Positions 3,738-8,270 of a DNA stretch of 8,294 nt are shown here, piece by piece. The DNA is taken from IMG/VR virus record IMGVR_UViG_2531839532_000007. One strand, given 5' to 3'. Every line of letters begins with the position of its first letter. Positions within the stretch are counted from its first letter, which is position 1. A model generated the notes under the pieces. That model did not search any database. It was not told the DNA's origin and saw only the letters and a list, made by a program, of their open reading frames with translations. The stretch comes from a virus (lineage: Duplodnaviria; Heunggongvirae; Uroviricota; Caudoviricetes). The translations under genes and the position numbers were made by a program.

Positions 3738-3956
3738 ATCCTCACCCCGATGTACACGGATGGTGCAATATGTTTGAAAAGATCGGAGTCTACGGGGTAG
3801 TTTTGACAGCACACGTTGTTCTCAACGGCGCTAAAAAAACATACACATTAAAAATGTGGGTAATTATTTTGAAAGAAAGTCATATATAAAATAATAATAC
3901 GAGAAATGTTTTCATATTTAGTGTACTGTATACGGCCATTTATACAGGAAAAGCCT

Positions 3957-4127
3957 ATGTCAGAACGTAAAAACTCAAAATCACGCCGTAATTATCTCGT
4001 TAAATGTTCCTGCCCAAACTGCACCCAAGAGTCAGAACACAGTTTTTCAAGAGTACAAAAAGGTGCCCTTTTGATCTGCCCTCATTGCAACAAAGTATTC
4101 CAGACAAATCTTAAAGCTGTAGCCTGA
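3957..4127 (+). CDS. Small zinc-ribbon protein (56 aa, CxxC…CxxC), antisense to the late operon
   Basis: MSERKNSKSRRNYLVKCSCPNCTQESEHSFSRVQKGALLICPHCNKVFQTNLKAVA with an AGGAAA Shine-Dalgarno 6 nt before ATG 3957. The ORF-track start at 3906 has a poorer Shine-Dalgarno. It may correspond to a small Qin protein annotated in recent K-12 releases, but I cannot name it with confidence. Confidence 0.5.
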   Translation: MSERKNSKSRRNYLVKCSCPNCTQESEHSFSRVQKGALLICPHCNKVFQTNLKAVA

Positions 4128-4180
4128 TTGATTTTATTAGTAACAAGTATTTTTTATATTTTAATAATATATTTAAAGCA

Positions 4181-4208
4181 GATAATAAAAAACCCGCCTG
4201 AGCGGGTT
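4181..4208 (-). terminator. Intrinsic terminator (strong on minus strand, weak on plus) between cspB and the zinc-ribbon ORF
   Basis: Perfect 7-bp stem AACCCGC-CTGA-GCGGGTT; the minus-strand reading is followed by UUUUAUUAUC. It lies about 280 nt downstream of the cspB stop. Confidence 0.55.
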
Positions 4209-4490
4209 TGAGATTGTGGTGCTTTTTGTGGGAGTCATCCACTTACGCACTTTGTTTTGCCATGCCAGCAGTTAGCTTCTGCTGTAAAACTATTCATGCA
4301 GCAAACCTGCACTTCACCACAATGGTTAGCATACTTTTCCTGATTAAGATTTTGCCAAATATGCTAGCCATTGTTTCATGTATTGGACCTCCTTACTTTT
4401 TATTAAAGAGATCCAATATTCACTACTCTGTCCGTATCTCTACTCAGGCATCAGCCTTCTTCGTTATCGTATACAGACGAGCGATGAATT

Positions 4491-4706
4491 TTAATCAGTA
4501 ATGATGACATTTGCTGCTGCAGGACCTTTAGCACCACTCTCTATAGAGAAGGTAACCTTTTGACCTTCAAATAAGGTTCGATAATTATCATTCTGAATCG
4601 CAGAAAAATGCACAAACACATCTTTACTACCATCAACAGGAGAAATAAAGCCGAAACCTTTATCAGCGTTAAACCATTTTACTAAACCAGTCATTTTATT
4701 TGACAT
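4491..4706 (-). CDS. cspB: Cold-shock protein CspB (CspA family, 71 aa)
   Basis: [71 protein letters not shown] with RNP motifs; AAGGAA Shine-Dalgarno upstream; divergent from cspF as in K-12. Confidence 0.95.
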
Positions 4707-4849
4707 TCTACATTCCTTAACTTGAGCCTTTCGGCATAAATGGTTTGCATAACAGAAACGACTTCGTACTTAATTGGAGAGACTCAAAGAAGGAATAAGT
4801 GAATAACACCTGAAATGAGAACTGCTTTAGTAAACTACTTCGTATATCG

Positions 4850-4902
4850 TCTGTTCTTCAAACCGACGCAATCATTAACGCATAGTTGAACATATGAAGC
4901 AA
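4850..4902 (-). promoter_or_regulatory. cspB promoter (-35 TTGCTT at 4902..4897, -10 GTTAAT at 4879..4874) with a cold-box-like element (TGAAGAACAGA, 4860..4850)
   Basis: 17-bp spacer and AT-rich UP-like region. The element just after the predicted start site matches the cspA cold box TGACGTACAGA at 9 of 11 positions. Predicted 5' UTR is about 160 nt. Confidence 0.45.
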
Positions 4903-5006
4903 TGTTTATTTTAGACATCCAGCCATCTTCAACCCCATCAAAAAACTATAGCTTTCTTCAGGAACGTGTGTATAGTGCGCCAAGTTATCAGTATTAAGGA
5001 ATTTTT

Positions 5007-5219
5007 TTGTCCCGTAAAATGACAGGAATTGTCAAAACCTTTGACGGCAAAAGCGGCAAGGGTCTTATCACCCCATCCGATGGTCGTATCGATGTCCAGC
5101 TTCATGTTTCAGCGCTCAATCTCCGCGATGCAGAAGAAATTACCACCGGATTACGCGTGGAATTTTGCCGGATAAATGGTCTGCGTGGCCCTTCAGCTGC
5201 CAATGTTTACCTTTCATGA
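5007..5219 (+). CDS. cspF: Cold-shock-protein paralogue CspF (70 aa)
   Basis: [70 protein letters not shown]. The 70-aa form starts at a TTG (5007) with AAGGA 8 nt upstream; the first ATG is at 5019. The RNP motifs are degenerate, as expected for CspF/CspH. Confidence 0.88.
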
Positions 5220-5273
5220 GCTATATTAAAGCTTTAATTTCAGGCCCCATCGGATCACACATGGAGAGTTTTT

Positions 5274-5363
5274 ATGAATAACCCCGTCTGTCTTGATGAC
5301 TGGTTGATTGGCTTTAAAAGCTTATGCTGTACTTTGGCCGTAATAGCTCTGCTAATAATATAA
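5274..5363 (+). CDS. Candidate small hydrophobic protein (29 aa) downstream of cspF
   Basis: GGAGAG Shine-Dalgarno 7 nt before ATG 5274; product [29 protein letters not shown] has a hydrophobic C-terminal half. It lies between cspF and the plus-strand terminator at 5512..5548. Sequence-only prediction. Confidence 0.3.
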
Positions 5364-5511
5364 TAAGCAGACTCATTGTGTTTAGGGACATTGTACTGGA
5401 AGAAAACATTTTAAACATCAGGCAAATAACCAAGTCACCAGCTAAATAATAAGTTAACAGACATGAGTCCCGGGATGAGATTCAACATTACCATTGCCCC
5501 ATTTAAAGCAC

Positions 5512-5548
5512 AAAACCCGCTCATCAGCGGGTTTTCTACTTTTTCTTA
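5512..5548. terminator. Bidirectional intrinsic terminator: cspF terminator on the plus strand and tR'-like terminator of the late leader on the minus strand
   Basis: Stem AAAACCCGCT-CATC-AGCGGGTTTT (perfect 8-10 bp). On the plus strand it is followed by UUCUACUUUUUCUU; on the minus strand by UUUUGUGCUUU. Confidence 0.6.
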
Positions 5549-5565
5549 ACGTCGGGTATACAAAG

Positions 5566-5609
5566 CCCATCGTTGAAAAAATTTTATCCATATTTTTTGA
5601 AAAATGCAA
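5566..5609 (-). promoter_or_regulatory. pR'-like late promoter with sigma70-dependent pause element (target of the Q antiterminator)
   Basis: Minus-strand reading TTGCAT-17 bp-TAAAAT-TTTTTC-AACGATGGG, beginning 32 nt after the Q stop. It parallels lambda pR' (TTGACT-17-TAAATT-TGACTC-AACGATGGG), including the -10-like AACGAT pause motif, as recalled. Confidence 0.6.
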
Positions 5610-5640
5610 ACATCATGTCGCCATCTTCAGCAAAAATCAT

Positions 5641-6393
5641 TTATCTCGTCACCTTCCTCAATTGCGCTTCCGCGTATGCTTCTTCCTGCCAGCACTTTGT
5701 TACCAGTTTACCAATGACGTCCGCATACCCCTTATACCACTGATAATCGGTCAGGTCTGGTACCAGCTTCTGGACATGACGTCGTGCCAGCGTGGTCGGT
5801 AAACGACTAAACCGGTTTCCATTACAACGCCCACAAATCTTATATACCGGTACGCCATGAAACCGGGTTCTTTTTTCATCCAGAACAATCCCTTTACCCT
5901 TACACCCTCTGCACGCTGTGCTGGCTTCGCCCTTACCATGGCAATGCTGACATAGTTCCTTCACCCATTCTTCCTTGATTACAGATTCCCCGCGTCTGTA
6001 GTGTTTCACCACTTCGCGCAATACATTATAAAATCCCGTACCTGAACAATGCTCACAGCGAGCCTTACTTGCCGCAGACCTGGAGTAATCAGCAAAGGCA
6101 AAACTCACGAGGTAAGGAATAATCTGTAACCGGATTTCTTCACTCAATTTGTTCAATGTCGGGTTATCCAGTGCCATCGCGTAATTTAGCAGGCCTTCAA
6201 TCGCAAACTGAGGGTCCTGAACACCAACTTTTGCCAGAAATAAGGCCAACCCAAGTGGTGCTTTCGACTGCACCATCCCCTGCGCTGCCATTACATCCGT
6301 AATTGTTAAACAACCGGTGCCTGTCGCTGGAGCGTCATCGCTCAATTTTGGAGATTTTGGGGAGTAATATTTTGGTAAGGCTTCAAGGTTCAT
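5641..6393 (-). CDS. quuQ: Late-gene antiterminator Q (250 aa from ATG 6393)
   Basis: Several CxxC/HCHGKG zinc-binding motifs (CEHCSGTG, CQHCHGKG, CRGCKGKG, CGRCNG) and a position directly upstream of a pR'-like promoter. GGAG lies 7 nt before ATG 6393; the ORF-track start at 6423 is a TTG. Length matches K-12 QuuQ as recalled. Confidence 0.88.
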   Translation of the reverse strand: MNLEALPKYYSPKSPKLSDDAPATGTGCLTITDVMAAQGMVQSKAPLGLALFLAKVGVQDPQFAIEGLLNYAMALDNPTLNKLSEEIRLQIIPYLVSFAFADYSRSAASKARCEHCSGTGFYNVLREVVKHYRRGESVIKEEWVKELCQHCHGKGEASTACRGCKGKGIVLDEKRTRFHGVPVYKICGRCNGNRFSRLPTTLARRHVQKLVPDLTDYQWYKGYADVIGKLVTKCWQEEAYAEAQLRKVTR

Positions 6394-8170: not shown

Positions 8171-8202
8171 AAAATAAAAACAAAAACCCGCCGAAGCGGG
8201 TT
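8171..8202 (-). terminator. Intrinsic terminator of the upstream (hok-containing) transcription unit
   Basis: Stem AACCCGC-CGAA-GCGGGTT; the minus-strand reading is followed by UUUUUGUUUUUAUUUU. It sits about 70 nt after the hok-like stop codon. Confidence 0.6.
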
Positions 8203-8270
8203 AAGTGCGGGTGCGTTGAGGATGCCTGCCACATCAGAGGTGGCGAGGGATTTCTCCCCCGCCGGGTCTC

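Follow-up and report, generated by a model that had tools for sequence, protein, structure and literature searches.

The window analysed here, a stretch of 8,294 nucleotides taken at its full length, belongs to Qin, a cryptic lambdoid prophage of E. coli K-12, and represents its late region; positions 4950-5650 of the window are identical in DNA sequence to the K-12 chromosome (NC_000913.3; 100% over 701 nt). On the plus strand, cspF (b1558; 5007-5219, with a TGA stop codon at 5217-5219) codes for an atypical cold-shock-domain protein of 70 amino acids (RefSeq; Pfam CSD PF00313, 77.8 bits). Next on the same strand is ynfS (b4750; 5274-5363), a gene of 29 codons for a 29-aa small protein that closes with tandem TAA TAA codons and lies between cspF and ydfT/quuQ (K-12 coordinates 1642122-1642211). 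A weakly conserved 3' untranslated stretch (5364-5511) separates it from a terminator-like hairpin at 5512-5535. The minus strand beyond carries quuQ/ydfT, the gene for the late antiterminator Q (5641-6393; RefSeq; Pfam PF03589 Antiterm, 181 bits).

The mini-ORF is already known: it is annotated, named ynfS, has a Pfam family of its own and has been detected experimentally, all of which was missed when it was first singled out from the letters of the window as a short hydrophobic reading frame preceded by a palindrome. RefSeq lists the CDS as 'protein YnfS', and the match to Pfam PF23697 ('YnfS') runs over the full length (residues 1-29) with 80.9 bits against a cutoff of 27; the Citrobacter-type peptide MYQKIYLNDWLTGLKSSCCTLIVTLLVFI (from C. 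braakii locus L012; the single variant scanned) matches the same family with 32.3 bits. PGAP-annotated genomes label the same ORF 'hypothetical protein'. Searches of NCBIfam, PADLOC and PDB with YnfS return no relative, the best match in PHROGs is non-significant (E = 0.12, phrog_31207, function unknown), and an Rfam search of the whole window at a relaxed E-value threshold yields nothing in 5220-5640.

The features that the original prediction described are all in the sequence where it placed them, with one correction of distance. The ynfS Shine-Dalgarno sequence, GGAGAG (5263-5268), is present, separated by a 5-nt spacer from the ATG at 5274, and lies 24 nt from the palindrome; the 35 nt that had been assigned to this gap reach to the ATG.

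Translation of ynfS is a matter of published record. Insertion of an SPA tag at the chromosomal gene allowed the protein to be detected by immunoblot (VanOrsdel et al. 2018; PMC6001520, with the Table 1 entry ynfS, cspF / ydfT, 1642122-1642211, 29 aa), and the tagged protein accumulates from its native locus in growing as well as stationary cells. The same study lists ynfS among the positives of tetracycline-arrested ribosome profiling, and Onc112 and retapamulin give strong peaks at the ynfS start codon (Weaver et al., bioRxiv 10.1101/511675). Ribosome profiling had been proposed as a check on the mini-ORF; these existing data are already positive and, together with the immunoblot, establish it as a real translated gene. 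They show translation of ynfS from its own strong ribosome-binding site. The conjunction of ORF and Shine-Dalgarno sequence is beyond chance, because the gene is annotated, its translation is published and it is conserved across genera. A 2024 survey still counts ynfS among the uncharacterized genes of Qin.

Conservation across genera could be followed in Citrobacter loci that were retrieved by similarity to CspF, and thus independently of YnfS. Three Citrobacter species have a 29-codon ORF placed 62-65 nt after the cspF homologue (54 nt in E. coli), with the peptides MNQTVYLSDWLTGLKSLCSTIAMTILLFI, MYQKIYLNDWLTGLKSSCCTLIVTLLVFI and MYPKIYLNDWLTGLKSSCCTLIATILLFI at 52-59% identity. In the DNA alignment of E. 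coli with Citrobacter, GGAGAGTTT, the ATG and the position of the stop codon are retained while the rest of the intergenic sequence and its length diverge; similarity is lost at once on both sides of ynfS, and the 3' region is unalignable. The GGAGAGTTT ribosome-binding site is invariant in all 43 distinct variants of the region, Citrobacter types included. Further copies were added by a pattern scan of viral contigs, and every one of 131 ynfS occurrences (10 distinct peptides, 14 distinct DNAs) is an intact 29-codon ORF. A second scan of the viral contigs, with a pattern that excluded E. coli types, returned Citrobacter types only, together with one unrelated chance match (L157).

Among E. 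coli-type variants ynfS is the least variable segment: 7 of its 90 columns vary, compared with 29/213 for cspF, 8/54 for the intergenic segment and 35/149 for the 3' region, which also holds a 7-nt indel and is exceeded in variability only by the 48 nt past the terminator. (The qualification that attaches to these variability and ORF-integrity counts is that most of the loci were retrieved by a DNA pattern over codons 9-18, so that conservation of that stretch is biased upward.) The best-conserved part of the peptide is D9-W-L-x-G-x-K-S-x-C-x-T20.

The differences between E. coli and Citrobacter types fall on codon positions in the order third > first > second, with pN of 0.24-0.30 against pS of 0.57-0.97, and dN/dS, where computable, is ~0.15-0.35 between genera, with synonymous sites saturated. 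In a substitution-only neutral simulation at that divergence, the frame stays intact in 4-7% of trials per lineage. These alignments show purifying selection on ynfS as a 29-residue peptide, and the cross-genus dN/dS below 1, the fixed length and the invariant ribosome-binding site together speak for a function of the peptide as such and against translational noise. A different reading of the same gene would have the peptide functionless, its gene translated incidentally or because ribosome traffic shields the long 3' region of cspF from Rho or RNases. Within E. coli-type variants the substitutions in ynfS are 6 nonsynonymous and 1 synonymous, close to the neutral ratio, so that these few changes give no sign of recent constraint; the gene has a narrow range, confined to prophages of Escherichia/Shigella and Citrobacter; no phenotype or partner is on record (2024 survey); and a cspF knockout is without effect in long-term stationary-phase competition. 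All of this is congenial to a peptide with no function. Yet a purely cis-acting role would leave the amino acid sequence unpreserved, and what the two genera preserve is an amino acid sequence: low dN/dS between them (subject to the saturation just mentioned), a length fixed at 29 codons, and the DWLxGxKSxCxT motif. We regard a functionless peptide as improbable, and favour a peptide that is maintained for what it does.

Past the ynfS stop codon, Citrobacter-type loci (L013 at ~1880-1915; L161-L164; L010 at ~1870-1900) have a GC-rich hairpin that is absent from E. coli, of which CTGGCCCC-12 nt-GGGGCTAG and CTGGCCTC...GGGGCCAG are examples. Its base pairs survive one-sided changes, and it is not followed by a T-run. 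It could act as a stabiliser at the 3' end or else be an element of the REP type.

The original prediction would have been undermined if the ORF were not conserved where cspF is conserved. In complete E. coli genomes the opposite is found: the ynfS segment (5255-5370) occurs in 1412 of 5426, a cspF-type gene (at least 90% identity) in ~1479 records, and of these cspF carriers ~95% (1413) also have ynfS, which is kept wherever the prophage-type cspF is intact. A class of E. coli sequences at ~90% identity (~67 records) is represented by two members that were examined (L005 1548-1945 and L165 700-902), and both have the same deletion allele, in which a loss of ~258 bp takes away the 3' end of cspF, all of ynfS and the greater part of the 3' region. 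The deletion spans ~5211-5468 in window coordinates, its junction joins directly to sequence just before the terminator, and cspF is annotated in both members as a frameshifted pseudogene. One further E. coli genome (H55, NZ_CM128591.1 614710-614747) aligns with the ynfS query over no more than its final 38 nt, at a place annotated as cspF, and may represent another deletion or fusion allele.

The linkage extends to phages. Four deposited Escherichia phage records (HannyBb, PhiR42_1, PhiR63_1 and 2H10) contain the cspF-ynfS segment, again located between Q and the holin gene. (In the HannyBb record, L004, PP925841.1, the Q-to-holin region is tiled with ~20 tiny, implausible minus-strand ORFs and the deposited annotation omits cspB, cspF and ynfS; gene calls there are unreliable.) No ynfS relic is found beside the chromosomal paralogue cspH, where the DNA match ends at the csp stop codon. 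The cspF-like gene of C. sedlakii (L011 1501-3115; 84% identical) is paired with a divergent csp gene and has a terminator but no ynfS; it directly adjoins icd, a classic prophage attachment region.

Two viral contigs separate the fates of the two proteins: in L037, with a premature stop, and L070, with a frameshift, cspF is inactivated and the neighbouring ynfS is intact. Any functional coupling of both proteins is therefore not obligatory, and the two contigs hint that ynfS can persist without CspF. One could nevertheless imagine that CspF and YnfS, the atypical cold-shock-domain protein and the membrane peptide, constitute a two-part phage-borne system that might, say, exclude superinfecting phages or adjust host physiology in lysogens, with YnfS synthesis gated by base pairing between the cspF stop region (CUYUCAUGA) and either the Shine-Dalgarno sequence of ynfS or its coding sequence, and shut off by antisense late transcription on induction; we consider so elaborate a scheme distinctly unlikely.

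That cspF, the mini-ORF and the terminator might form one unit had also been proposed, and the arrangement fits. A scan of 4650-5750 gives no promoter-like site on the plus strand, including in the 54-nt gap between cspF and ynfS (the same scan also missed the promoter of cspF itself), and no terminator between the two genes. The sole strong terminator-like site on the plus strand follows ynfS: the intrinsic terminator AAAACCCGCTCATCAGCGGGTTTT at 5512-5535, 148 nt past the stop codon of ynfS, with a 10-bp stem containing 5 G-C pairs, a 4-nt loop and then the tail CTACTTTTTC. (A second entry of the scan, at 5663-5676 within the Q gene, is weak, with a stem of 5 bp.) This terminator is conserved in K-12, in phage 2H10 and in the deletion allele. 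From the 54-nt gap with neither promoter nor terminator and from the conserved adjacency we infer that cspF-ynfS is a bicistronic unit, whose transcript would start in the divergent region between cspB and cspF and end at the hairpin, with ynfS as its second cistron. A literature search for cspF together with RIL-seq gave nothing on an sRNA from the cspF 3'-UTR.

On the minus strand, a pR'-like late promoter, TTTGCA-18-TAAAAT (or, in an alternative register, TTGCAT-17-TAAAAT), is placed by the promoter scan at 5581-5610, 31 nt downstream of the Q stop codon, and is conserved among variants; its function is putative. The hairpin at 5512-5535 lies ~45 nt downstream of this promoter. The scan scores it as a terminator on the plus strand only; as read from the sequence, it could terminate in both directions, because it has an A-run upstream and a T-run downstream, and it is probably also the tR' of the minus-strand late promoter. 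The layout is thus Q - pR' - tR' - [ynfS, cspF on the opposite strand] - cspB - [ynfU on the opposite strand] - lysis genes, and it follows from this layout that Q-modified late transcription must run antisense through ynfS and cspF. The Q gene, the pR'-like promoter and the terminator on the minus strand agree with the earlier suggestion of an antisense relation between this region and the late transcript. In the prophage the cspF-ynfS unit would be expressed; after induction, late transcription in the antisense direction would oppose it.

The perfect 14-bp palindrome ATTAAAGCTTTAAT (5225-5238) is its own reverse complement, has two 7-bp halves, contains a HindIII site and is separated by 5 nt from the cspF stop codon. 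It had been put forward as a noteworthy element of this gap, to be examined for protein binding. A functional role, as the operator for a protein or as an RNA hairpin controlling the expression of ynfS or cspF, would draw on the perfection of the 7+7 symmetry, on its position immediately past cspF and on the minimum-free-energy fold of a 341-nt segment, in which the palindrome pairs with ynfS codons 13-16 and encloses the ynfS start. Against it stands, to begin with, the frequency of such sequences: in first-order Markov shuffles, 0.62 perfect palindromes of at least 14 bp are expected per 8.3-kb window and 46% of shuffles contain at least one, so that the palindrome is real but statistically not unusual. 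Of 30 distinct E. coli-type variants, 7 break it, at positions 5236 and 5238, and in Citrobacter loci unrelated sequence occupies its site, though cspF, the Shine-Dalgarno sequence and ynfS are kept. As RNA it could form an A-U stem only; the local fold of 96 nt around the palindrome and the ynfS start is no better than its shuffles (z = -0.24), and the 341-nt fold has z = -1.55. Occurrence at chance level, loss in E. coli variants and in Citrobacter, and the lack of a structure signal leave a functional palindrome scarcely credible; on this comparative evidence it is a chance AT-rich feature without function.

Two candidate RNA structures in the same region were also set aside. A long-range pairing of the cspF stop codon and palindrome with ynfS codons 13-17 is 73% paired in its palindrome helix, with no compensatory change on the alignment, and this helix is rejected as well on account of the palindrome being broken outside E. 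coli. A pairing proposed by RNAalifold, of CUYUC at the end of cspF with GAGAG of the Shine-Dalgarno sequence, is uninformative because the columns are invariant or constrained by coding; CspH, which has no ynfS, ends in the same C-terminus.

The C-terminal half of YnfS was predicted to be membrane-like, and the last 13-20 residues are indeed hydrophobic: residues 10-29 have a mean Kyte-Doolittle value of 1.6-2.3. Only 13 residues form an uninterrupted hydrophobic run, K15 lies inside the 10-29 segment, and the position-independent Hessa sum (-0.7 kcal/mol for K-12, +1.5 to +2.0 for Citrobacter types) is borderline. On this prediction YnfS would be a membrane peptide anchored by its C-terminus. 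Conservation of the small and polar residues G13, S16, C18 and T20 suggests packing of a helix against a partner, as other small membrane proteins of E. coli do. One may propose, tentatively and with confidence falling a little short of even, that W10-I29 resides in the inner membrane and packs against a larger membrane protein via the D-W-L-x-G-x-K-S-x-C-x-T face; mechanistically, the C-terminal 20 residues of YnfS would insert and the conserved face would make the contact.

Several small proteins of the E. coli inner membrane, among them AcrZ, MgtS, MgrB, KdpF and CydX, bind a larger membrane protein. YnfS is like the members of this class in having fewer than 50 amino acids and a single hydrophobic helix (a predicted one in the case of YnfS), and in having been detected by means of the SPA tag. 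It differs from the AcrZ/MgtS class in that it has no sequence similarity to it, and in that its hydrophobic segment is at the extreme C-terminus and borderline for insertion.

The type I toxins (Hok, Ldr, Ibs, ShoB, TisB) offer another point of comparison, since YnfS is likewise a short hydrophobic peptide from a prophage-rich region, with an antisense transcript possible. YnfS might accordingly be a membrane-damaging peptide of this sort, held in check by a dedicated sRNA or by the antisense late transcript. It is small, prophage-encoded and hydrophobic at its C-terminus, and hokD and relBE are 3 kb away in the same prophage; a weak promoter-like site on the minus strand (5384-5355, 9/12 matches) would generate RNA antisense to ynfS, and late transcription from pR' is likewise antisense. 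The promoter-like hexamers, however, differ in 13 of 30 E. coli-type variants, with changes at 5360, 5380 and 5382, the region is unalignable in Citrobacter, and 2.7 such sites are expected by chance in the scanned stretch; the antisense RNA and its promoter are thus not conserved as those of a type I system would be. Nor does YnfS behave as a repressed toxin: its translation is open, with strong initiation peaks, and the tagged protein accumulates without reported toxicity. There is no Rfam RNA, and no match to a toxin family in Pfam, NCBIfam, PHROGs or PADLOC. A search among E. coli papers that mention YnfS found no published overexpression toxicity test. A toxin-like function is, on balance, quite unlikely, and a membrane peptide with a protein partner remains the preferred reading of what YnfS does.

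Other small ORFs are found directly 3' of a prophage csp gene and on the same strand, namely YmcF/YnfQ and YnfR (after cspG and cspI), and ynfS resembles them in this placement. The likeness does not go further: YmcF/YnfQ/YnfR share no sequence similarity with YnfS, and ynfS follows the atypical, non-CspA-like cspF, which lacks a cspA-thermoregulator leader, unlike the setting of YmcF/YnfQ/YnfR. YnfR is cold-induced with its csp neighbour, whereas cold induction of YnfS is not reported. As to CspF, the level of its mRNA is raised in long-term stationary phase, and the knockout has no phenotype in that competition assay; the protein is induced by AZT although there is no LexA box, and it is inactive in assays of the CspA/CspD type.

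The surroundings of cspF-ynfS indicate how the pair may move. A block of four genes, ynfU-cspB-cspF-ynfS, is conserved in Citrobacter sp. FP75 (L010 414-3206, corresponding to window 3906-6393). In Qin it adjoins a Q gene of the PF03589 family, in Citrobacter sp. FP75 an unrelated Q gene of the PF06530 family; the Citrobacter block is also beside a DUF968 gene. The same block also occurs in the phage records 2H10, HannyBb, PhiR42_1 and PhiR63_1. Its presence next to Q genes of two unrelated families points to a mobile moron cassette and suggests, from gene order, exchange among lambdoid phages, the block being a candidate insert between the Q and lysis genes. Other lambdoid morons occupy this genomic position, past Q/pR'/tR' and ahead of the lysis cassette (stx of the Stx phages is one), and the proposed cassette is comparable with these in being an autonomous insert that is partly opposed to late transcription, has its own terminator and keeps company with different Q genes. 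The bor and lom morons of λ are located elsewhere, and the cargo is different from that of the Stx-phage morons, consisting here of csp genes and the small proteins YnfU and YnfS.

Taken as a composite, the account in which ynfS is a genuine gene, cspF-ynfS a single unit, the block a moron insert, YnfS a membrane peptide and the palindrome a product of chance is one that we hold to be rather likely. The discovery value is small, since ynfS had been annotated and detected previously and the palindrome drops from consideration. New are the Citrobacter orthologues with dN/dS below 1, the invariance of the ribosome-binding site, the 95% figure for linkage with cspF, the allele with the deletion and the negative outcome for the palindrome. 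The gene travels with cspF, cspB and ynfU between Q and lysis genes, in isolated phages as well, and of the Qin genes that are still uncharacterized it is one that functional work could reasonably take up.

Matches to the Rfam cspA thermoregulator are found elsewhere in the window, at 4475-4867 and 1580-1965 on the minus strand (158.8 and 112.8 bits; gathering score 78), where they extend over both leader and coding sequence of cspB and of cspI; there is none at cspF. At 8181-8262, also on the minus strand and upstream of rem, there is a sub-threshold match to the Hfq-binding sRNA IsrK (25.1 bits against 50, E = 0.034), which may represent a diverged prophage sRNA or chance.
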